Positions 1 to 10,187 are shown, counted from the stretch's first letter. The stretch is 64,000 nucleotides of DNA from an uncultured Lentisphaeraceae bacterium (GCA_964386865.1 CAYLUN010000012.1:13029-77028); one strand, 5' to 3'. Numbers and translations: made by a program. Notes: generated from the letters alone by a model not told the origin.

Positions 1-1137
1 GCCCGCCAGACCTTCGCCCGCGACGGCGTGCGCCAGCTCAAGACCGACCTCATCAAAACCGCGCTGACCAAGAACTACGACGCCTTCAGCGACGCCGGCA
101 AGAAGGTGGCCCTCGAACTCATCAAGGAGCGCCGCATCGCCGAGGCCGCCGCGCTCGGCCTCGCCGCGCTCGACTCGAAAGACGAGGAGGCCGTCATCGC
201 CGGCTACCGCCTGCTGCGCGAGATCGCCGACAAGGGCCAGGCCGACATCCTCGTCGCCAAGCTCCTCGCCACCACCGGCCGCGTGACCCCCGAAGCCCAG
301 ACCACCCTCGCCGCCGCCGCCCGCCGCGACGCCTCGGGCGCGTACGCCGCCGCCCTCCTCAAGTCCCTCCAGTCCGCGACCGACACGCAGAAGCCGGTCG
401 CCCTCGAAACCGCCGCCCGCCTCGGCGGCGACGCCCTGCTGAACGCCGTCGACGCCGCCTGCGCCTCGCCGAACGCCGAGATCGCCACCGCCGCCGTGCG
501 CGCACTGGCCGCCTGGGCAGACTCCGCCTCCGTGCCCGCGCTCCTGCGCCGCGCCGCCACCGCCGCCAACACCAAGCAGCAGACCCTCGCGCAGCGCGGC
601 CTCGCCAAGAAACTCAACGAGTCCGGCGCGGACAAAAAGGCCGCCTTCACGCTCTGGCAGAGCCTTAAGCCGAGCGTCGCCGACGAGGCCCGCAAGAAGG
701 CCATCGACGACCTCTTCAAGCAGGAGGCCAACGTCGCCCTCGGCAAACCCGTGGCCACCGACGTCCCGACCGAGGGCAACCACGTCCCAGCCAACCTCAC
801 GGACGGCACAACCAACAAGGCCTGGCACGGCGCGAAGTCGCCGGCGCATGCGACCATTGACCTCGGCAGCGTGCAGACGGTCGGCGCCCTGCACGTGACC
901 TTCTACAACGACGACGGACGCACCTACACCTTCACGCTGGAACTCTCCGAGGACGGCAAGGCGTGGAAGCAGGTGGCCGGCAACGCCGACGCGCCCAAGC
1001 CCGCCACGGCCGAGGGCCTGCGCCTCGACTTCGCGCCCACCCCCGCCCGCCACGCGCGCCTGACGGTCCTCAAGAACAGCGCCAACCCCGCTGTCCACGT
1101 GTTGGAGCTGAAGCTGCTAGCGACCACGACGCCGTAA
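1..1137 (+). CDS. HEAT/ARM-repeat protein with C-terminal F5/8 type C (discoidin, CBM32-like) domain; 5'-partial
   Basis: Frame is open from base 1. Ala/Leu-rich helical repeats are followed by NVALGKPV...NLTDG...W...IDLG...Y.LELSEDGKAW...ARHARL, typical of F5/8C. Confidence 0.75.
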   Translation, partial: ARQTFARDGVRQLKTDLIKTALTKNYDAFSDAGKKVALELIKERRIAEAAALGLAALDSKDEEAVIAGYRLLREIADKGQADILVAKLLATTGRVTPEAQTTLAAAARRDASGAYAAALLKSLQSATDTQKPVALETAARLGGDALLNAVDAACASPNAEIATAAVRALAAWADSASVPALLRRAATAANTKQQTLAQRGLAKKLNESGADKKAAFTLWQSLKPSVADEARKKAIDDLFKQEANVALGKPVATDVPTEGNHVPANLTDGTTNKAWHGAKSPAHATIDLGSVQTVGALHVTFYNDDGRTYTFTLELSEDGKAWKQVAGNADAPKPATAEGLRLDFAPTPARHARLTVLKNSANPAVHVLELKLLATTTP

Positions 1138-1139
1138 CC

Positions 1140-2444
1140 ATGAGCCGAATACGCCTGCCCTATCACCGGACCCATCTGGAAGCGGAGGTTCCTGACTCCC
1201 ATCTCAGGGGCATTCTTGTTCCGCGCGGGCACGGCGGCTCGCCGGACCTGTCGCTTTCCGAGGCGGCGCAGCAGCGGCTTGTCAACCTGGCGCTCGACTG
1301 TCCGGTCGAATCCGAGCCCCTTGAAAAGCTGGCCGCTGGCAAGCGGCGCGCGACGGTGATCACCAGCGACCACACCCGTCCGGTGCCCAGCCGCCTCACC
1401 CTGCCGCTCGTGCTGGAGCGGCTGCGCCGCGGCAACCCAGAGATCGCTGTTACCGTGCTCGTGGCCACCGGCTGCCACCGCGCCACCACCGCGCAAGAGC
1501 TGCGGGCCAAATTCGGCGACCGCATCTGCGACGCCGAGCGGCTCGTGATCCACGACTGCGAGGACGCCGCCAGCCTGCGCCACATCGGAACCCTGCCCTC
1601 GGGCGGCGCGCTGTGGCTCAACCGCCACGCGCTGGACACCGACCTGCTGGTCGCCGAGGGCTTCATTGAGCCCCACTTCTTCGCAGGCTTCTCGGGCGGC
1701 CGCAAGAGCGTCCTGCCCGGCATCGCCGGGCGCCAGACCGTGCTGGCCAACCACTGCTCGGCCTTCATCGCCGACCCCTGCGCGCGCGCCGGCTGCCTGG
1801 AGGGCAACCCCCTTCACCGGGACATGCTGTTCGCCGCCCGGCAGGCCGGCCTGGCGTTCATTCTCAACGTTACCCTGAACCCCGACAAGACAATCTCCGC
1901 CGCCTACGCCGGGCATCCGGAGCAGGCTCATGAGCGAGGCTGTTCCCACCTGAAAGCGGCTGTCCGGATCGCGGCGGTCCCGGCTGAGATCGTCATCACC
2001 AGCAACGGCGGCTACCCCCTGGATCAGAACATCTACCAGGCGGTCAAAGGCATGACCGCCGCGGAGGCCTGCTGCCGGGCCGGCGGCACGATCATCATGG
2101 TGGCCGGCTGCAGCGACGGCCACGGCGGCGAGGGCTTCTATCGCGGCCTGGCCGGCGCGGAGAGCCCGCAGGCCCTGCTGCGGCACGTGCTGCAAGTCCC
2201 GCAAGAGGAGACCCCTCCCGACCAGTGGGAGTACCAGATCCTCGCCCGCATCCTGGCCCGGCACCGCGTGATCCTCGTGACCGACCTCTGCGACCCCCAG
2301 ATGATCCGCGACATGCACATGGAGCACGCCCCGACCCTGCAGGCGGCCGTGGACAGGGCCCTCGCTGGCGCGGGGCCCGGCGCGGGCGTCACCGTCATCC
2401 CCGACGGGGTCGGGGTGATCGTTGAGCCCTCACGTCGCGATTAG
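1140..2444 (+). CDS. larA: Nickel-pincer-dependent lactate racemase (LarA) family protein
   Basis: ATG 2 bp after the upstream stop. Motifs SDHTRP, ATGCHR, IHD, EPHFFAGFSGGRKS, NH, GGYPLDQNIYQAVKG and VIPDG; both NPN-related Lys and the His residues are present. Confidence 0.88.
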   Translation: MSRIRLPYHRTHLEAEVPDSHLRGILVPRGHGGSPDLSLSEAAQQRLVNLALDCPVESEPLEKLAAGKRRATVITSDHTRPVPSRLTLPLVLERLRRGNPEIAVTVLVATGCHRATTAQELRAKFGDRICDAERLVIHDCEDAASLRHIGTLPSGGALWLNRHALDTDLLVAEGFIEPHFFAGFSGGRKSVLPGIAGRQTVLANHCSAFIADPCARAGCLEGNPLHRDMLFAARQAGLAFILNVTLNPDKTISAAYAGHPEQAHERGCSHLKAAVRIAAVPAEIVITSNGGYPLDQNIYQAVKGMTAAEACCRAGGTIIMVAGCSDGHGGEGFYRGLAGAESPQALLRHVLQVPQEETPPDQWEYQILARILARHRVILVTDLCDPQMIRDMHMEHAPTLQAAVDRALAGAGPGAGVTVIPDGVGVIVEPSRRD

Positions 2445-2467: not shown

Positions 2468-3925
2468 TCACGGGCTCTGGTCGATCTTCTCGCCCATCAC
2501 CCGCCGGATCTCGGACGCCCGAACGTCGCGCACCGCCACGTTCTTCTCGCACGCCAGATGCGCGGCCACGCCCGCCGCTTCGCCGAGCTGCATCATCGTG
2601 CGCGAGAGGCGGCAGCTCGACGCGGCGATCGCGCTGAAGCTTGCCGCGCGGCCCGCGATCAACACGTTCTGCGTCTTGAGCGGCAGCAGGCAGCGGTACG
2701 GAACGCCGTACGGCCCCTTCAGCTCGCCGCCCGGCCCGCCGCCGCCGTGGTTGTCCATCGGGTGATCCGCGATCGCAATGATATCCTCGTGTATCTGCTT
2801 GGCGAGTCCGGCGATCAAGTCGTTCTGGTTCAGCACGTATTCGCCGCGCACGCGCCGCGTCTCGCGCAGGCCCGCTTTCGGAAAGATCATCTTCAGCTTG
2901 AACCGGCGGAACTCGTCGAAGTTCGACTGGTACCAGTGCCAGTGCGCCCGCACGCGGCGCTCGCACTCGGCGTAAGCCTTCTCCGCTCCCAGCGCCAAGA
3001 ACTCCTCGCCCTTCATGGTCGGCAGCATGTTGATAAAGCGGTCGCCGCACGGGTACTGCCCCACGAAGGCGACCGGGAAGCCCTTCTGCCACCAGCAGGT
3101 CTCGGGGATGCCCTCGGGCAGCGGCTCCACGAGGTCGGGCTCCTTCTTGCCGATGGGCGTGATGCGGTAGACCAGCGTCGCGCCGTTCATCTGCCGCAGC
3201 GGCTCCGGCGGCGCGCCGGGCTCGTCGAAGTCCGCGCGGCGATCCCGGCCGACCATGAGGTCGCACCCTAGCCGCTCGCAGAGCACGCCGTCCGTCGCAT
3301 CGACAACAACCTTCGCCCGCACCGTTGTGCCGTCCGAGAGCGTGAGTGACTCCACGCGGCCGTCCGCGTGCGCAGCCGCCGTGAAGGCCGTCTTCAGGAA
3401 CACGCGGCAGCGGCCGGTCTCCTTGAGCATGTCGAGCATGACCGCCGACATCGCGTCCGGCTCAAAGATCACGCCGTGGCAGTGCTCGCGGAACCACGCC
3501 TCGTCGCCCATGCTGAACCCGTGGCGCAGCAGCGTGTGCGCGTAGGTCAGGCACGGGTCGGTCTCGATCATGCCGCCTGGAAAGGTGTACTTCTCCCACG
3601 GCTTTTTCCACGACAGGTGGCGGTCGAACCGGTAGACGCCCGCCGCGCCGGGGATCTGCGCGAGCCGCTGGTAGACTCGGTACGGCACGCCGGTGCCGCC
3701 CATGCCCGGCTCCCAGTTGTTCACGCCGCCGAGGGTCGAGGTGCCGCCCAGCACCGACTCCTTCTCCACCAGCACGACCGTGCTGCCGAGGTGCGCGGCG
3801 GACCACGCCGCGCCGAAGCCGGCGCTGCCGCCGCCGACCACGGCGACGTCCACCTCTAGAGCCAGCCCCTGGGCGCGGGCACACGCCGCGAACAGCACGA
3901 ACGGCCAAACGAAACACCGATTCAT
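2468..3925 (-). CDS. Secreted FAD-dependent oxidoreductase (FAD_oxidored-like family)
   Basis: GGAGG RBS, signal peptide, DVAVVGGGSAG Rossmann motif, LGGTST, DAT-DG, RETRRVRGEY, YGVPYRCLLP, GEAAG. Confidence 0.85.
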   Translation of the reverse strand: MNRCFVWPFVLFAACARAQGLALEVDVAVVGGGSAGFGAAWSAAHLGSTVVLVEKESVLGGTSTLGGVNNWEPGMGGTGVPYRVYQRLAQIPGAAGVYRFDRHLSWKKPWEKYTFPGGMIETDPCLTYAHTLLRHGFSMGDEAWFREHCHGVIFEPDAMSAVMLDMLKETGRCRVFLKTAFTAAAHADGRVESLTLSDGTTVRAKVVVDATDGVLCERLGCDLMVGRDRRADFDEPGAPPEPLRQMNGATLVYRITPIGKKEPDLVEPLPEGIPETCWWQKGFPVAFVGQYPCGDRFINMLPTMKGEEFLALGAEKAYAECERRVRAHWHWYQSNFDEFRRFKLKMIFPKAGLRETRRVRGEYVLNQNDLIAGLAKQIHEDIIAIADHPMDNHGGGGPGGELKGPYGVPYRCLLPLKTQNVLIAGRAASFSAIAASSCRLSRTMMQLGEAAGVAAHLACEKNVAVRDVRASEIRRVMGEKIDQSP

Positions 3926-3992
3926 AGCCCCCTCCAAATGCGTCGGGCGTGCCGGCAGCGCCCGGCACGCCCGACAGCGATCACGCGCTCCT

Positions 3993-5762
3993 TCAAACGT
4001 CCTTCTGGTGGTAGTGCGTGTGCAGCAGGTGGTGCGACTTCTCGCCCAGCGGCTTGCCCAGATACTCCTCGTAGAGCTTCATCACGTCCGGGTTCTCGTG
4101 CGACTTGCGCATTGTCTTGCACTCGTCTTCGCAGTAGATGCCCGCGATGCGCTTCAGCCGCACGGAGTCGTCCGTGAAGCGCGGCTGCCCGCCGCCGCCG
4201 ATGCAGCCGCCGGGGCAGGTCATCACCTCGACGAAGTGGTAGGTCGGGCCGTTCGCCTTGATGTGCTCCAAGAGCCGGCGCGTGTTGGCCAGCCCGTGGC
4301 ACACCGCGACCTTGAGCTCCACGCCCTCGAGGAAGGACCACTCCTTCACGGTGCCCGTGATGGTCAGCGACGCCTCCTTGATGCCTTCGAGCCCGGAGAC
4401 CGCCTTCACGTGCAGGTTGTCCACGGGCAGCGTGCGCCCGGTGACGATCTCGTAGGCCGTGCGCAGCGCGGCCTCCATCACGCCGCCGGTGTTGGCGAAG
4501 ATGTCCGCCGCGCCGGACGAGAGCCCCAGCGGCGCGTCCATCTGCTCATCCGGCAGATTCTTGAAGTCGATGCCGGCCTCTTTGATCATCTTCGCCAGCT
4601 CGCGCGTCGTGAGCACGTAGTCCACGTCGCGAACGCCGCTGGCGTTCATCTCGGGGCGCTGCGCCTCGAACTTCTTGGCCGTGCACGGCATGACCGAGAC
4701 CACCACGAGCTCCTCGGGCTTGCGCCCGATCTTCTGCGCGTAGTAGGTCTTGGCGATCGCGCCGAACATCTGCTGGGGCGACTTGCAGGTCGAGATGTTC
4801 GGCAGGAACTGCGGGAAGTAGAACTCCGCGAAGTTGATCCAGCCGGGCGAGCAGCTCGTGAACATCGGCAGCGCCACGGGCTCCTTCTTCACCAGCGCCT
4901 TCTTCAGGCGGGTGAGCAGCTCCGTGCCCTCCTCCATGATGGTGAGGTCGGCCGTGAAGTTGGTGTCGAACACGCCGTCGAAGCCGAGCCGGCGCAGCGC
5001 CGCCGCCATCTTGCCGGTGACGCGCGTGCCCGGCTCGTAGCCGAAGCACTCGCCCAGCGCGGCGCGGATGGCCGGCGCGGTCTGCACGATCACGTGCAGC
5101 TTCGGGTTCTCCAGCGCCTTCCACACGGCGGGGATCTGGCTCTTCTCGGTGATCGCGCCGACCGGGCAGATCGCCGCGCACTGGCCGCACTGCACGCACG
5201 CCACGTCGCCGAGGTCGCGGGTGAAGGCCGGCCCGATCTCCGTCTGGAACCCGCGCCCCTGCGGATGCAGCGCGCCGACGCCCTGCACCTCGCTGCAGAC
5301 CGTCACGCAGCGGCGGCACTTGACGCACTTCGCGTTGTCGCGCACGAGCGCGGGCGTGGAGTCGTCGATCTTCTTCTTGGCCTTGGCGCCCTCGTAGGGC
5401 AGGCAGGTCACGCCCATCTCCTCGGCCAGGGCCCGCAGCTCGCAGTCTCCGCTGCGGTCGCAGGTCTGGCAGTTGCCGTCGTGCTCCGACAGCAGCATCT
5501 CCAGCACCTGCCGCCGCGCGTTGCGCGAGTGCGTGGTGTTCGTGCGCACGACCATGTTCTCGGTCACCGGCGTCGAGCACGCGGCCACCAGCGTGCGCGC
5601 GCCCTCGACGTCGACGAGGCAGACGCGGCACGCGCCGATCGCCCCTCGCTTCTCCAAGTTGCAGAGCGTGGGGATCGTGACTCCCACCTGGCGCGCCGCC
5701 TGCAGGATCGTCGTGCCCTCGGGCACCTGCAGCTTCTGGGTGTTGATTGTAACGTTCAGCAT
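3993..5762 (-). CDS. hydA: [FeFe]-hydrogenase group A catalytic subunit (HydA/HndD-like)
   Basis: H-cluster motifs TSCSPGW, MPCTAKKFE and EVMTCPGGCIGGGGQP; N-terminal 2Fe-2S, His-ligated 4Fe-4S and 2x4Fe-4S Cys motifs; C-terminal RKSHEN...LLHTHY. Confidence 0.97.
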   Translation of the reverse strand: MLNVTINTQKLQVPEGTTILQAARQVGVTIPTLCNLEKRGAIGACRVCLVDVEGARTLVAACSTPVTENMVVRTNTTHSRNARRQVLEMLLSEHDGNCQTCDRSGDCELRALAEEMGVTCLPYEGAKAKKKIDDSTPALVRDNAKCVKCRRCVTVCSEVQGVGALHPQGRGFQTEIGPAFTRDLGDVACVQCGQCAAICPVGAITEKSQIPAVWKALENPKLHVIVQTAPAIRAALGECFGYEPGTRVTGKMAAALRRLGFDGVFDTNFTADLTIMEEGTELLTRLKKALVKKEPVALPMFTSCSPGWINFAEFYFPQFLPNISTCKSPQQMFGAIAKTYYAQKIGRKPEELVVVSVMPCTAKKFEAQRPEMNASGVRDVDYVLTTRELAKMIKEAGIDFKNLPDEQMDAPLGLSSGAADIFANTGGVMEAALRTAYEIVTGRTLPVDNLHVKAVSGLEGIKEASLTITGTVKEWSFLEGVELKVAVCHGLANTRRLLEHIKANGPTYHFVEVMTCPGGCIGGGGQPRFTDDSVRLKRIAGIYCEDECKTMRKSHENPDVMKLYEEYLGKPLGEKSHHLLHTHYHQKDV

Positions 5763-5777
5763 GAAAGGTCTCTCCGA

Positions 5778-8700
5778 TTAAGCGTGTTCGCACTCGCAGG
5801 GTTGTTTGCCGTAGTCGCACCGCAGGCAACGCTTGGCCTGCCGGAGCGCCGTGTTCTCGTTCCACGGCTGCTCCACCTCGGCGAAGTTCTGCCGCCGCTT
5901 CTCCAGCGGCATGGTGTGCAGCTTTTCGCGGGCGTAGTTGACCGGGTCGGCATACGGGTCGAACGCCACGCCTGGATCGCGGTAGCCGCGCCAGAAGGCG
6001 TGCTCGGCCCCGGCCAGCAGCGCGTCGATCGCGACCGCCGTCCGCTCGCCCGCCGCGATGGCGTCCGCCACCGAGGAGGGCCCGGACGCCGCGTCGCCGC
6101 CCGCGAACAGCCACGGCACCGAGGTCGCGCCCGTGCGGGGGTCGGCCTTGATCCAGCCGCGCTCGTTGTGCTCCACGTCGATCGAGCCAGAAAGCGCCTT
6201 CTTGTCCAGCGCCTGGCCGATCGCGACGATCACCTGGTCGGCCGGCAGAAGCTCGCAGGCCTCGTCGCCGCCCTCCGGACGGCGCCGCCCGGAGCGGTCG
6301 AACTCGCCCAGCTTCATCGCGCGCAGCCGGAGCCCCGTCACGTGGCCGTCTTCCACTTCGAACGCCTCGGGGTGCACCAGCGTGCGCAGCGTGACGCCCT
6401 CGTGCATCGCCTCCTCGATCTCCTCGGCGTAGGCTGGCATCTCCTCGCGGGTGCGGCGGTAGATCACGGTCACGCTCTGCGCGCCCAGCCGGATCGCCGT
6501 GCGCGCCGCGTCGATCGCCGCGTTGCCGCCGCCGATCACCGCCACGTGCTTGCCCACCGGCACCGAGCCGCGGATGTTATAGTGGCGGAGGAACGACATG
6601 GCCTCGGTCACGCCGCGGGCGTCCGCGCCCGGCACGTCAAGCGCGACGCCGAGCGGCGCGCCCACCGCCAGAAAGACCGCCTCGTAGCCCTTGTCGCGCA
6701 GCTCGGCCAGCGTGAAGTCGCGGCCCAGCGCGCGCCCGGTGTCGATGGTCACGCCCAGGTGCTCGATCATGCGCACCTCGCGGGCCAGCTCCTCGCGCGG
6801 CAGGCGGTAGGCGGGGATCGCCTGCACCAGCATGCCGCCCGGCCGGGGCTCGGCTTCGAGCACGTCCGGCCGATAGCCCAGGCGCGCCAAGAAATACGCG
6901 CAGGACAGGCCAGCGGGGCCTGCGCCGATCACGGCGACCTTGCGCTTCGCGTTGGCGGCGTTCTCGCGCACCTCGGGAACCTGCACGGTCACCTCCTGGT
7001 CCACCATGAACCGCTTGATGCCGCGGATCGAGACAGGCTCGTCGAGCGCCGCGCGGCGGCACTTGTCTTCGCACGTGTGGAAGCAGACGCGGGCGCAGAC
7101 CGAGGCGAAGGGGTTGCGCTCGCGGTGCAGCCGCAGCGCCTCGGCGTAGCGCTTCTCGCCGACCATCGACACGAAGCCCGGCACGTCCACGCCCACCGGG
7201 CACGCGCTCAGGCAGGGCGCGCGCACGAGGCCGGCGCAAACGCCGGCGGCGCAGTGCCGGTCGCGGATATGCTCTTCGTACTCGTGGCGGAAGTGCCGAA
7301 TCGTCGACAGCACCGGGTTCGGCGCCGTCTGGCCCAGGCCACAGAGCGAGGCGCTCTTGATGAAGGTGCCCAGCTCGATCAGCCGCTCGATGTCGCCCGA
7401 CTCGCCCTGGCCCGCGCAGATGCGCTCCAGGATCTCCAGCATGCGCCGCGTGCCGACCCGGCAGGGGACGCACTTGCCGCACGACTCCTCCTGCACGAAC
7501 TCGATGAAAAAGCGCGCGACGTCCACCATGCAGGTGTCCTCGTCCATCACGATCAGGCCGCCCGAGCCCATGATTGCGCCCAGCTCGGCCAGCGACTCGT
7601 AGTCGAGCGGCACGTTGAGGTTCTGGCGCGGGATGCACCCGCCCGAAGGCCCGCCGATCTGCGCCGCCTTGAAGTGCTTGTTGTTGCGGATGCCGCCGCC
7701 GATGTCGTAGACCAGCTCGCCGAGCGACGTGCCGACCGGCACCTCGACCAGGCCGGTGTTGCGCACCGCGCCCGCGAGCGCGAACACTTTCGTGCCCTTG
7801 CTCTTCGGCGTGCCCATCGAGGCGTACCACGCGCCGCCCTTGAGCAGGATGGCCGGCACGTTGGCGTACGTCTCCACGTTGTTCAGCACCGTCGGGCGGC
7901 CCCACAGGCCCTTCTGCGCCGGGAACGGCGGGCGCGGGCGCGGCTCGCCGCGCTTGCCCTCGATCGAGGCGATCAGCGCCGTCTCCTCGCCGCAGACGAA
8001 CGCGCCGGAACCCATGCGGATCTCGAGGTCGAACGAGAACGCCGTGCCCAGGATGTTCGCGCCGAGCAGGCCGCAGGAACGCGCCTGCGCGATGGCCGCG
8101 GAGAGGCGCTCCACCGCCAGCGGGTACTCGGCCCGCACGTAGACGTAGCCCTGCTGCGCGCCGACGGCGAAGGCGGCGATCGCCATGCCTTCGATGACGC
8201 TGTGGGGGTCACCCTCCAGCACGCTGCGGTCCATGTAGGCGCCCGGGTCGCCCTCGTCGGCGTTGCACAGCACGTAGCGCACGCCCGGCTCGGACTGGCG
8301 GGCCAGATTCCACTTCAGCCAGGTCGGGAAGCCCGCGCCGCCGCGGCCTCGCAGGCCCGAGGTCTGCATCTCTTCCACCACGCGCTCGGGCGTGAGCTCC
8401 GTCAGCACCTTGGCCAGGGCGGCGTAGCCATCGTGGGCGATCGTGTCGCCGATCTTCTCGGGGTCGATCCAGCCGCAGTTGCGGAGCACGATCTGCGTCT
8501 GGCGCTTGAAGAACTCGATGTCCTGGCGGCACGGGGCGGGCTTCTTGCCGGCCGCGTCCAGCACGAGAAGCCGCTCCACGCGCTGGCCGCCGCAGATGTG
8601 CGTCCGCACGATATCCGCCGCGTCGCTGGGCTTGACGCCCTGGTAGAACGTCCGGTCGTCGCCGATCAGCACGACCGGCCCCATCACGCACGGCCCCATG

Positions 8701-8930
8701 CAGCCCGTCTCGACCAGCGCGACCTGGTCGCTCATCTTCTCCATCTCGAGCGCCAGGCGCAGCGCGTCGCGAACCTCTTTGGCGCCCGAGGCCAGGCAGC
8801 TTCCGCCGAAGCAGACAAGGATCTGGCGCACGGGCGCGCCGCCGCCGGCGGGCTTCTTGGCGCGCAGCCGCTCGCGGAGGGCGGCGAGCTCGGCCACGCT
8901 GTTAATCCGTTTCAGGGCTGGGGCTTTCAT
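5778..8930 (-). CDS. hydB: HydB/NuoF-like FMN/NAD subunit fused to a GltD/NfnB-like FeS-FAD-NADP(H) module
   Basis: GLRGRGGAGFPT, NADEGDPGAYMDR, GAFVCGEETAL, GGPSGG and ESCGKCVPCR, followed by CLSACP...CARVCFHTCEDKCRR, GAGPAG, GGGNAA-D, YRRT, GGD and RCLRC. Confidence 0.92.
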   Translation of the reverse strand: MKAPALKRINSVAELAALRERLRAKKPAGGGAPVRQILVCFGGSCLASGAKEVRDALRLALEMEKMSDQVALVETGCMGPCVMGPVVLIGDDRTFYQGVKPSDAADIVRTHICGGQRVERLLVLDAAGKKPAPCRQDIEFFKRQTQIVLRNCGWIDPEKIGDTIAHDGYAALAKVLTELTPERVVEEMQTSGLRGRGGAGFPTWLKWNLARQSEPGVRYVLCNADEGDPGAYMDRSVLEGDPHSVIEGMAIAAFAVGAQQGYVYVRAEYPLAVERLSAAIAQARSCGLLGANILGTAFSFDLEIRMGSGAFVCGEETALIASIEGKRGEPRPRPPFPAQKGLWGRPTVLNNVETYANVPAILLKGGAWYASMGTPKSKGTKVFALAGAVRNTGLVEVPVGTSLGELVYDIGGGIRNNKHFKAAQIGGPSGGCIPRQNLNVPLDYESLAELGAIMGSGGLIVMDEDTCMVDVARFFIEFVQEESCGKCVPCRVGTRRMLEILERICAGQGESGDIERLIELGTFIKSASLCGLGQTAPNPVLSTIRHFRHEYEEHIRDRHCAAGVCAGLVRAPCLSACPVGVDVPGFVSMVGEKRYAEALRLHRERNPFASVCARVCFHTCEDKCRRAALDEPVSIRGIKRFMVDQEVTVQVPEVRENAANAKRKVAVIGAGPAGLSCAYFLARLGYRPDVLEAEPRPGGMLVQAIPAYRLPREELAREVRMIEHLGVTIDTGRALGRDFTLAELRDKGYEAVFLAVGAPLGVALDVPGADARGVTEAMSFLRHYNIRGSVPVGKHVAVIGGGNAAIDAARTAIRLGAQSVTVIYRRTREEMPAYAEEIEEAMHEGVTLRTLVHPEAFEVEDGHVTGLRLRAMKLGEFDRSGRRRPEGGDEACELLPADQVIVAIGQALDKKALSGSIDVEHNERGWIKADPRTGATSVPWLFAGGDAASGPSSVADAIAAGERTAVAIDALLAGAEHAFWRGYRDPGVAFDPYADPVNYAREKLHTMPLEKRRQNFAEVEQPWNENTALRQAKRCLRCDYGKQPCECEHA

Positions 8931-9478
8931 GCGTGCTCCTTTTCCCCGGCAGCAGGAGCGCCGGACAGAATCTGATTGACCAGTTCGCCGACGCGCGCCG
9001 GCTTGACACGCTGGTAGGTCGTGTCATTGACCATCACCACCGGCGCCATGCCGCACGCCCCGAAGCACCGGCCGACCTCCAGCGAGAACAGCCGGTCAGC
9101 GGTTGTCTCCCCCACCTCGATCGAGAGCTTCTTCTTGAACGCGTCCAGCACCTCTTTGCCACCGCGCACGTAGCAGGCCGTGCCGAGGCACACGCGCACC
9201 AGATACTTGCCGCGCGGATGCAGGGTGAAGAAGGAGTAGAACGTCACCACGCCGGCGACCTCGCTCATGGTTTTGCCGAAGCCGTCTGCGATGCGGCGGA
9301 TCACGGGCTCGGGAAGGTAGCCGAAGATGGTCTGGGCGGTCTGCAGCGCGGGGATCAGACCGCCGGGCTTCTCGTGATACTCGCCGATCACGTCGTCGAG
9401 GCGTTTGTACAGGTCGGCATCCGAGGGCTCGCATCCACAGGCGCAGCCGCAGGGGGCAGAAGCGGGAAGAGACGTCAT
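8927..9478 (-). CDS. hydC: HydC/NuoE-like 2Fe-2S subunit
   Basis: GVVTFYSFF, VCLGTACYVRG and RCFGACGMAP; its stop overlaps the hydB start (ATGA). Confidence 0.92.
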   Translation of the reverse strand: MTSLPASAPCGCACGCEPSDADLYKRLDDVIGEYHEKPGGLIPALQTAQTIFGYLPEPVIRRIADGFGKTMSEVAGVVTFYSFFTLHPRGKYLVRVCLGTACYVRGGKEVLDAFKKKLSIEVGETTADRLFSLEVGRCFGACGMAPVVMVNDTTYQRVKPARVGELVNQILSGAPAAGEKEHA

Positions 9479-9585: not shown

Positions 9586-10029
9586 TTAGAGAGAGCCCTC
9601 GATATATTTCTCGAGGTTCCGGATCAGGGCGTCCTGCTCCGAGGCCACGAACTTGACGAGGTCGCCGATCGAGATGATGCCCAGGATGCGCTCCTGCGCG
9701 TCGATCACGGGCAGGTGGCGTATGCGCTTCTGCGTCATCAGCGCCATGCACTCATCCACCGTCGTCTCGGGCGAAGCATAGACCACTTTCTTAGTCATCA
9801 CGGACTTCACGAGCACGTCGCGCGGGGACTTGTCGAGCAGGATTACTTTACGGAAACAATCGCGCTCAGCGAAAATGCCGGCGATCTTCCCGTGCGCGTT
9901 CAGCACCAGCAGGGAGCCGATATTCTTTTGATCCATCAATTGAATGGCTTCGAAAACCGAAGCCTGGGGCGAGATGGCCACGATATCCCGCCCCTTCTGC
10001 ATGAGCAGTTGGTTGATCGGCGTGTTCAC
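9586..10029 (-). CDS. Stand-alone tandem CBS-domain protein
   Basis: GIFAERD, VMT and RIRHLPV...GIISIGDLVK. GTG start after a GAGG-like RBS; the start is uncertain (ORF extends to 10068). Confidence 0.88.
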   Translation of the reverse strand: MNTPINQLLMQKGRDIVAISPQASVFEAIQLMDQKNIGSLLVLNAHGKIAGIFAERDCFRKVILLDKSPRDVLVKSVMTKKVVYASPETTVDECMALMTQKRIRHLPVIDAQERILGIISIGDLVKFVASEQDALIRNLEKYIEGSL

Positions 10030-10187
10030 TTCACGTTCCTCCTTTGCGCTGGTTGACAACGGGCGCACGCGCGCCCGGGAGCGACCCCGCTTTCACCCGG
10101 CATATAACGGCACGATGGGCGCGAAGAAGCCCCAACAATCAATCATCACAACAGCCGGGCGGATTATCCATCATTACCGCCATTGTC

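Follow-up and report, generated by a model that had tools for sequence, protein, structure and literature searches.

The window analysed here is a stretch of 64,000 nucleotides from an uncultured Lentisphaeraceae bacterium (GCA_964386865.1 CAYLUN010000012.1:13029-77028), and between its positions 3993 and 9478 it carries the genes of an [FeFe]-hydrogenase in the order hydC-hydB-hydA, head to tail on the minus strand. A sequence-only reading of the window had placed a three-gene [FeFe]-hydrogenase here, and all three open reading frames were indeed located at these positions. The genes are tightly packed, with an overlap of 4 bases between hydB and hydC and a gap of 15 bases between hydB and hydA, and the G+C content lies at 0.66-0.74 throughout. 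Judged by its sequence, the operon encodes a cytoplasmic multimeric [FeFe]-hydrogenase of the sub-type I BfuABC kind (Zheng & Huang 2024). The genes and the predicted features of HydB are the following.

8927-9478, minus strand: hydC, NuoE-like [2Fe-2S] subunit, 183 aa from its ATG, lying within a longer GTG frame
5778-8930, minus strand: hydB, 1050 aa, Bfu-type NuoF-like flavoprotein fused to an NfnB-like FAD/NADP(H) module
8604-8825, minus strand: HydB residues 36-109, N-terminal thioredoxin-like [2Fe-2S] domain (cluster B2; PF01257), ligands C40, C45, C77, C81
7266-8453, minus strand: HydB residues 160-555, NuoF core with FMN/NAD(H) site, SLBB and [4Fe-4S] cluster B1 (C484, C487, C490, C530), from TIGR01959 and Pfam
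7236-7274, minus strand: HydB residues 553-565, hinge EHIRDRHCAAGVC, last stretch in common with canonical HydB and fusion point
6987-7250, minus strand: HydB residues 561-648, Fer4_20 (DPD_II) domain (PF14691, 72 bits), ligands for two [4Fe-4S] including C573, C577, C612, C616, C620, C624 and K639
6048-6941, minus strand: HydB residues 664-961, FAD fold (GAGPAG 669-674, E692, R709, GD 945-946) and NADP(H) fold (GGGNAA 800-805, Y824-R825-R826), Pyr_redox_2 122 bits
5817-5930, minus strand: HydB residues 1001-1038, C-terminal helix and RCLRC (C1035, C1038), from alignments to NfnB, NfnA and StnC
3993-5762, minus strand: hydA, [FeFe]-hydrogenase catalytic subunit, 589 aa

HydB shows characteristic features of a bifurcating-type B subunit up to its hinge. 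A Pfam scan gave 2Fe-2S_thioredx (36-109), Complex1_51K (189-359; 160 bits, cut-off 31.2), SLBB (383-430; 26.7 bits, marginally below the 27-bit cut-off, E = 5e-6), NADH_4Fe-4S (470-554; 119 bits), Fer4_20 (561-648) and Pyr_redox_2 (664-961), and residues 160-555 match TIGR01959 (nuoF_fam) with 498 bits. Thus, the five families that the sequence-only reading expected, from Complex1_51K to Pyr_redox_2, are all present, SLBB just below its cut-off, and every motif it quoted for core and tail occurs in the translation. The core motifs include CFGGSC (40-45), GCMGPC (76-81), GRGGAGFPT (195-203) and NADEGDPGA (223-231) together with GGPSG and DEDTC. Compared with solved B subunits, residues 35-570 score 764 bits against the NiFe-HydB of A. 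mobile (7t2r_B), 758 against HydB of A. woodii (7q4v_B), 719 against StnB, 706 against NfnB of C. saccharolyticus and 688 against HydB of T. kivui. The likeness to 7t2r_B, 7q4v_B and the S. ovata subunit 8oh5_B stops at the hinge HIRDxxCxAxxC, and no ferredoxin-type Fer4 dicluster family was among the Pfam matches at E <= 0.01, in agreement with the proposal that this HydB keeps the core through the hinge and lacks the usual C-terminal ferredoxin-type clusters. In T. maritima HydB, a Zn site made up of three Cys residues and a single His was reported to act as a hinge (PMC9499530); by analogy, H554, C560, C565 and perhaps C612 would fit such a Zn site here.

Beyond the hinge, the place of the ferredoxin-type tail is taken by a module of the GltD/NfnB type, as had been suggested. 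Its closest solved relatives are A subunits of the Nfn-Bfu/Stn enzymes: residues 567-1040 score 357 bits against NfnA of C. saccharolyticus (9bov_A), 332 against StnC of S. ovata (8oh5_C) and 320 against 9n5u_A, followed by free-standing NfnB of T. maritima (4ylf_B, 296 bits) and NfnL of P. furiosus (5jca_L, 270 bits), and then by GltD and dihydropyrimidine dehydrogenase. The NCBIfam names obtained for the tail are generic and all below cut-off (TIGR01317, 191 bits, cut-off 448; TIGR01318, 261 bits, cut-off 483). Its motifs are APCLSACP (571-578), SVCARVCFHTCEDKCRR (610-626), GAGPAG (669-674), GGGNAAID (800-807), IYRRT (823-827) and RCLRC (1034-1038). The last 40 residues (E..R..NF.EV...A..EA.RCLRC) align to residues 13-43 of T. 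maritima NfnB, that is, to its N-terminus, and to the module end in NfnA 9bov_A and StnC 8oh5_C, up to residue 567 in each. Since the C-terminal ligands C1035/C1038 thus sit at the N-terminus in free-standing NfnB, the tail is circularly permuted in the Stn manner. Behind RCLRC, an extra CECE is found (HydB residues 1045-1048, window 5787-5798); it is not conserved, as only 4 of 49 homologs have Cys at the first of its two Cys columns and 1 at the second, and the segment has a pLDDT below 50.

Individual residues of the tail provided further insights into its likely chemistry. In the alignment, C577/C616/C620/K639 match C108/C147/C151/K170 of StnC and NfnA, which hold the FAD-proximal cluster in these proteins (PMC11829005, PMC10482914). 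The distal cluster of the tail would be held by C573, C624, C1035 and C1038. K170 was described as essential in StnC, the bifurcating NfnB has a Glu at this place, and the authors concluded that the FAD of StnC does not bifurcate (PMC10482914). As the position of K639 is a Lys in 49/49 fused homologs, as in StnC and not Glu as in NfnB, the tail FAD points to the non-bifurcating kind by this criterion. The second Rossmann strand, VTVIYRRTREEMPA, matches NADPH-dependent NfnA, StnC and NfnB and is nearly identical to that in NfnA and StnC; because the C. saccharolyticus NfnA and S. ovata StnC enzymes oxidise NADPH (PMC11829005, PMC10482914), the tail nucleotide is probably NADP(H). Taken together, HydB is predicted from sequence and model to carry an N-terminal [2Fe-2S], FMN with an NAD(H) pocket, [4Fe-4S] cluster B1 and the hinge, followed by a tail with two [4Fe-4S], FAD and an NADP(H) pocket. 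An AlphaFold2 model of HydB made with 49 homologs reached a mean pLDDT of 88.7 and a pTM of 0.85. The predicted fold displays target-normalised TM-scores of 0.84-0.95 to Bfu B subunits, and Foldseek found no solved chain spanning both halves of HydB, which were matched separately with a best query-normalised TM-score of 0.52.

The predicted cofactor sites are conserved over the 49 fused HydB homologs, which come from many phyla, as follows.

N-terminal [2Fe-2S]: C40 in 45/49, C45 in 46/49, C77 in 47/49 and C81 in 49/49
B1 [4Fe-4S]: C484, C487, C490 and C530 in 49/49
Hinge: H554, C560 and C565 in 49/49
Tail cluster ligands: C573, C577, C616, C620, C624, C1035 and C1038 in 49/49
Extra tail Cys: C612 in 48/49
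Proximal-cluster Lys: K639 in 49/49
FAD-site Arg: R709 in 48/49
NADP(H) fold: G800, G802, A805, Y824 and R825 in 49/49, R826 in 48/49

The catalytic partner, HydA, is by its motifs and family matches a complete group A [FeFe]-hydrogenase with a full H-cluster site. It scores 882 bits against NCBIfam NF040763 (cut-off 765) and 530 bits against TIGR02512 (cut-off 406), matches Fe_hyd_lg_C (331 bits) and Fe_hyd_SSU in Pfam, and reveals the H-cluster motifs TSCSPGW, MPCTAKKFE and EVMTCPGGCIGG. Ahead of the H-cluster domain lies a relay of N-terminal [2Fe-2S], His-ligated and 2x[4Fe-4S] domains; a C-terminal extra cluster domain was not found in the Pfam scan. The nearest solved relative is HydA1 of A. 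woodii (7q4v_A, 639 bits). In TSCSPGW (HydA residues 302-308, window 4839-4859), a Ser replaces the usual Cys ligand of the [4Fe-4S] subcluster. An unusual H-cluster was considered on these grounds and rejected, since the active A. woodii HydA1 bears the same Ser (Ser301) at the H-cluster [4Fe-4S] (PMC10021017) and this residue is common in the HydA lineage, fused or not: the motif reads TSCSP in 21, TSCCP in three and is unmatched by the pattern in four of 28 HydA beside a complete fused HydB, while 16 other HydA matches display TSCSPGW (15) or TSCCPAW (one). The third subunit, HydC, which carries the [2Fe-2S] cluster C1, matches 2Fe-2S_thioredx (Pfam, 165 bits, residues 28-170), with its [2Fe-2S] ligands C97, C102, C138 and C142 invariant in 29/29 aligned HydC sequences. 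Its N-terminus additionally carries a CxCxCxC pattern (C10, C12, C14, C16; residues 10-16, window 9430-9451), of which C12 is kept in at least 90% of the 29 HydC homologs from fused operons.

An assembly chimera at the junction, which would be expected near position 7230 and was named as a concern by the sequence-only reading, is rejected. The fusion point lies at about HydB residue 566 (window ~7232), and exact-match contigs cross it in four runs from three studies, namely two DNA runs belonging to studies other than the possible source and two RNA-library runs of one sample (X3, 7086-7445; X9, 7086-7443; X6, 6667-7445; X7, 7078-7446). Among the matches listed from a 5.8-billion-protein collection, 116 of 119 other proteins span at least 96% of HydB with 70-92% identity, the named sources being Kiritimatiellae, Lentisphaerae, Verrucomicrobia or Marinimicrobia metagenome-assembled genomes. 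Full-length matches were also found in at least 21 of 201 genomes sampled from the phylum of the organism, the present genome included. Of the words sampled from the operon, 75-79% occur in two metatranscriptome runs of a single freshwater sample, and contigs of these two RNA libraries reach parts of hydC, hydB and hydA. As RNA libraries can contain DNA, this is a hint of transcription and not proof, and depth derived from contigs, being a poor measure, cannot rank expression. The source genome (6.7 Mb in 302 contigs, 93% complete) encodes the maturases HydE (323.5 bits), HydF (581.2) and HydG (426.1), all above their cut-offs, on contigs C87, C203 and C81. With hydEFG present, synteny kept among related loci and RNA-library contigs at hand, the hydCBA gene set is functional and selected.

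The fused architecture is already in print from genomes. Zheng & Huang (2024, mSystems, PMC11406978) described a "sub-type I" of group A3 in which B3/B4 of BfuB are replaced by DPD_II and a C-terminal FAD/NAD(P)-binding domain, with homologs of Kiritimatiellota, Verrucomicrobiota, Planctomycetota and Spirochaetota that have no BfuD. Our operon agrees in its Fer4_20 (561-648) and Pyr_redox_2 (664-961) domains, in the lack of BfuD and in the M3a-type BfuA with Ser at the fifth P1 position (TSCSPGW here), and no structural difference to this sub-type was noted. The present locus is therefore one more intact example, with presence in RNA libraries. What is added here is a residue-level argument (the Lys ligand, the Stn-type permutation and the YRR motif) that the tail would serve as a simple NADP(H) port rather than as a second bifurcating flavin.

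Canonical HydABC of A. woodii, T. kivui and T. maritima (PDB 7q4v/8a5e, 8a6t, 7p5h) share with our operon the gene order, the set of FMN, B1, C1, B2 and hinge, and a NuoE-like HydC; the likeness to A. woodii extends over HydA (639 bits, including the Ser ligand replacement) and HydB residues 35-569 (758 bits). In contrast, their mobile, ferredoxin-reducing 2x[4Fe-4S] domain with B3/B4 is replaced here by the FAD/NADP(H) module of about 480 residues. The Stn/NfnABC enzymes (S. ovata 8oh5, C. saccharolyticus 9bov, T. sibiricus 9n5u) contain the closest relatives of the tail, which have the Lys ligand and the YRRTxxEMPA strand in common with it as well as the C-terminal RCLxC permutation, and HydB(1-570) and HydC have close homologs in their B and C subunits. 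However, their NADPH module is inserted in a NuoG/HydA-like A subunit without H-cluster, where it feeds a mid-potential entry, and their B subunit keeps B3/B4 and reduces ferredoxin, whereas here the B subunit bears the module and the A subunit is a genuine hydrogenase. From NfnAB (NfnSL), the operon differs in the Lys at the place of the NfnB Glu ligand, and from GltD in scoring far below the cut-offs of TIGR01317 and TIGR01318. Neither an NfnA/NfnS-like [2Fe-2S]/FAD partner gene nor a gltB-like or sulfur-related gene was found among the operon neighbours.

An archaeal hybrid [FeFe]/[NiFe] complex (Greening et al. 2024, Cell, PMC11216029) also possesses a HydB with a glutamate-synthase-type domain, modelled on 7MFM chain I, and a Thermoplasmatales locus of our own sample (L043) carries a fused HydB. 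That complex differs in its partners (a HydA-HyhS fusion, HyhL and HydD), and its authors assign a low-potential acceptor, "likely ferredoxin", to the domain (PMC11216029). The Bfu family was defined by Schut et al. 2022 (PMC9304861) through BfuB with Nuo51 (IPR011538), SLBB (IPR019554), NuoF [4Fe-4S] (IPR019575) and ferredoxin-type (IPR017896) domains and through BfuC (IPR002023). Nuo51, SLBB (marginal), NuoF [4Fe-4S] and a NuoE-like BfuC are present in our operon, and the ferredoxin-type domain is absent as judged by Pfam models instead of the InterPro/PROSITE profile; because the definition includes this domain, it would exclude the present HydB. Word searches of this article (PMC9304861) gave no such fusion, and no description of it was found in papers on Chloroflexi, Dehalobacteriia, Chitinispirillum and K. 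glycovorans. Two bifurcating hydrogenases lying next to each other are all that is mentioned by Spring et al. 2016.

Regarding function, the sequence-only reading proposed that a single complex could couple H2, NAD(H) and NADP(H), and we consider this reasonable and the leading reading, while its wording "hydrogenase-transhydrogenase hybrid" exceeds the evidence. Deletion of the HydB C-terminus leaves low bifurcation activity (PMC10021017), and in NfnABC low-potential electrons run from C1 via B3/B4 to ferredoxin (PMC11829005); for these reasons, the replaced domain is the ferredoxin branch. The branch ending at ferredoxin in canonical enzymes would then end at FAD and NADP(H) in the fused HydB, so that three substrates could be coupled without ferredoxin. 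We tentatively propose, with slightly less than even confidence and by analogy, that NADP(H) takes the place of ferredoxin according to NADH + NADPH + 2H+ <-> 2H2 + NAD+ + NADP+. Somewhat more tentative still is the detailed version, a ferredoxin-free two-nucleotide confurcating hydrogenase in which low-potential electrons of the FMN-B1-C1 site would pass via two [4Fe-4S] to FAD/NADP+ and not to ferredoxin, NADH and NADPH being oxidised together to H2. In this scheme, the FMN-B1-C1 site would stay the coupling centre and the tail FAD would act as a plain two-electron/one-electron converter, as in StnC/NfnA. In a fermenter, the enzyme may run toward H2, and the more reducing cellular NADPH pool could help to pull the unfavourable oxidation of NADH.

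Several points speak against such a coupling without ferredoxin. The cellular NAD and NADP pools differ by only ~100 mV, and the gain from coupling them is much below that obtained with ferredoxin. The wiring of the tail to C1/B2 is assumed by analogy, and StnC Cys-114, which can replace the Lys as ligand, has no counterpart in the tail, the position being V, I, A or S. At the FMN site, the core is nearer to the NAD-using HydB of A. woodii (758 bits) than to the NADP-using HydB of T. kivui (688 bits), which is weak evidence for its nucleotide, and no sequence rule for this preference was found in the accessible part of the Katsyv paper. Zheng & Huang, in a purely bioinformatic study (PMC11406978), proposed the FAD as a possible second bifurcation centre. 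Finally, reports on activity, cofactor content or structure of any fused member were not found in the literature searched, outside of which lie subscription journals and supplements.

Rather unlikely, in our view, is an uncoupled dual-nucleotide hydrogenase, in which the arm with FAD/NADP(H) and the site with FMN/NAD(H) would each exchange electrons with the H-cluster independently. Either nucleotide would then serve to make or consume H2, without obligatory energetic coupling. Non-bifurcating HydAB(C) enzymes with beta subunits lacking extra clusters do exist (PMC7311640), the tail is of the Stn type, in which the FAD simply forms the entry at the end of a linear chain, and the ferredoxin domain of canonical enzymes, which bifurcation requires, is missing. 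Yet the core keeps every mark that sets bifurcating B subunits apart from non-bifurcating ones, namely the N-terminal [2Fe-2S] (45-49/49) and the His/Cys hinge (49/49), an ungated link between NADH and NADPH would be expected to short-circuit both pools, and many phyla have conserved the architecture next to canonical enzymes.

The proposal in print (PMC11406978) makes the FAD a second bifurcating centre of a ferredoxin-dependent, four-substrate enzyme, in which NADPH-reduced FAD would split electrons between the core and ferredoxin at the distal tail cluster, as in NfnAB. We regard this as improbable. Homology links the tail to bifurcating NfnB/NfnL (4ylf_B, 296 bits; 5jca_L, 270 bits), the FAD-site R709 is kept in 48/49 homologs, and RnfC is encoded in the same genome, the presence of Rnf implying that a ferredoxin pool is run. 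However, the Lys ligand of the proximal cluster, found in all 49 homologs, is that of non-bifurcating StnC/NfnA and not the Glu of NfnB, so that this comparison points away from the authors' proposal; moreover, the tail is nearer to NfnA/StnC (357 and 332 bits), whose circular permutation it shares, and the operon was found to contain no NfnA/NfnS-like partner gene. Very improbable, finally, is a tail serving another acceptor (a glutamate-synthase large subunit, or sulfur/polysulfide as in SudA-type relatives) or only sensing NADPH/NADP+ to gate the hydrogenase: GltD-type modules work with many partners (PMC5736913), the family names of the tail are generic and a conserved upstream CBS-pair gene hints at small-ligand regulation, but no gltB-like or sulfur-related gene was found adjacent, the unit conserved across phyla is hydC-hydB-hydA only, and the catalytic FAD, NADP(H) and two-cluster-wire residues are invariant or nearly so.

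A distinct role of the fused enzyme is also argued for by a canonical hydA-hydB operon in the same genome (contig C49:19457-24046), with a HydA displaying TSCCPAW and a HydB of ~595 aa ending in two CxxCxxCxxxCP motifs, accompanied by a small thioredoxin-like [2Fe-2S] protein and an ATPase-like gene. Due to its presence, the fused enzyme is an addition to, and not a substitute for, a ferredoxin-linked hydrogenase. If the coupling of H2 with both nucleotides without ferredoxin is true, this would be the first Bfu enzyme with a pyridine nucleotide as low-potential partner, and many uncultured anaerobes would possess a direct valve connecting H2 with the two nucleotide pools. The current definition of Bfu-type enzymes rests on a core from which low-potential electrons always go to ferredoxin; since the ferredoxin-reducing domain is swapped for an NADP(H) flavin module, the fused variant lends itself to testing at which site and in what manner such enzymes split electrons. 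Metabolic models of many uncultured fermenters, including Kiritimatiellia, Lentisphaeria, Planctomycetota, Bacteroidota and Thermoleophilia, would change as well; in these models, the fused gene is routinely taken for an ordinary NADH/ferredoxin hydrogenase.

The sequence-only reading had cautioned that the architecture may be under-characterised rather than unique, which is right and even understated, as it is widespread and had been reported from in silico work in 2024. In a 50%-identity representative library, full-length fusions with 35-49% identity make up about 13 of the best 150 matches. Among 80 related loci from one-genome-per-species contigs, a sample biased to fusions because the search patterns were drawn from the fused query, 63 are strict in-frame fusions, two more are fused but cut at the contig start (L054, L060), 13 are unfused and two are not judgeable. 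Carriers of the fusion include Planctomycetota, Spirochaetota, Bacteroidota, Actinomycetota, Acidobacteriota, Chloroflexota, Bacillota, Thermodesulfobacteriota, Atribacterota and one Thermoplasmatales archaeon, with the cultured Pelotomaculum terephthalicicum JT among the Bacillota. Downstream of the 63 strictly fused hydB, a full hydA follows in 31 loci and a hydA cut by the contig end in five, showing the same hydC-hydB-hydA synteny; 11 display only a HydA-N-terminal-like iron-sulfur protein, i.e., another kind of A subunit. In four, no hydA-like gene lies within 700 nt and another hydC-hydB set is present farther downstream, with a full hydA behind it in three and only a HydA N-terminal match in L047, and in the remaining 12 the tail itself is cut or incompletely aligned.

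A quick maximum-likelihood tree of the NuoF-like part, unrooted and calculated from this biased sample, comprised 79 rows (58 fused, 21 unfused), with unjudgeable tails left out. The present HydB falls into an all-fused clade of 29 rows (SH-aLRT 100), the record labels of which span at least 10 phyla and include a Hydrogenedentota row (L058); reference sequences of Zheng & Huang are not part of the tree. To account for the fused state across the tree as a whole, at least 4 to 6 changes are required, a pattern that fits lateral spread plus several gains or losses.

Upstream of hydC, at a distance of 107 bases, the window carries one further gene that is possibly co-transcribed with hydCBA.

9586-10068, minus strand: CBS-pair gene, Pfam CBS x2

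In each of the three closest loci (L008, L009 and L015), hydC is directly preceded by a homolog of this gene, with 80, 45 and 44% identity, and a promoter-like site, a consensus match only, precedes the CBS-pair gene at 10216-10188 on the minus strand. Its contigs have about 10x the depth of the hydB contigs in two RNA-library runs, contig depth being a poor expression measure. On the other side of the operon lie a LarA-type lactate racemase homolog (963-2444, plus strand) and a PF12831 FAD-dependent oxidoreductase with a hydrophobic N-terminus (2468-3937, minus strand). Counterparts of these two genes were not found in the related hydrogenase loci, and the FAD_oxidored gene was rejected as a part of the system, with a counterpart in 0/80 of them.

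Two more NuoEF-type clusters are encoded elsewhere in the genome. Contig C7 (103432-107555) carries a Stn-like cluster with HydC-like and HydB-like parts in one open frame of 851 codons; the next gene combines an N-terminal [2Fe-2S] with a GltD-like FAD fold, and a second GxGxxA/YRR nucleotide fold was not seen in its sequence. On contig C120 (3497-5918), a fourth NuoE/NuoF/NuoG-like trio is present, the third gene of which matches only the iron-sulfur part of the HydA N-terminus, and this trio probably represents another Bfu- or Fdh-type complex.

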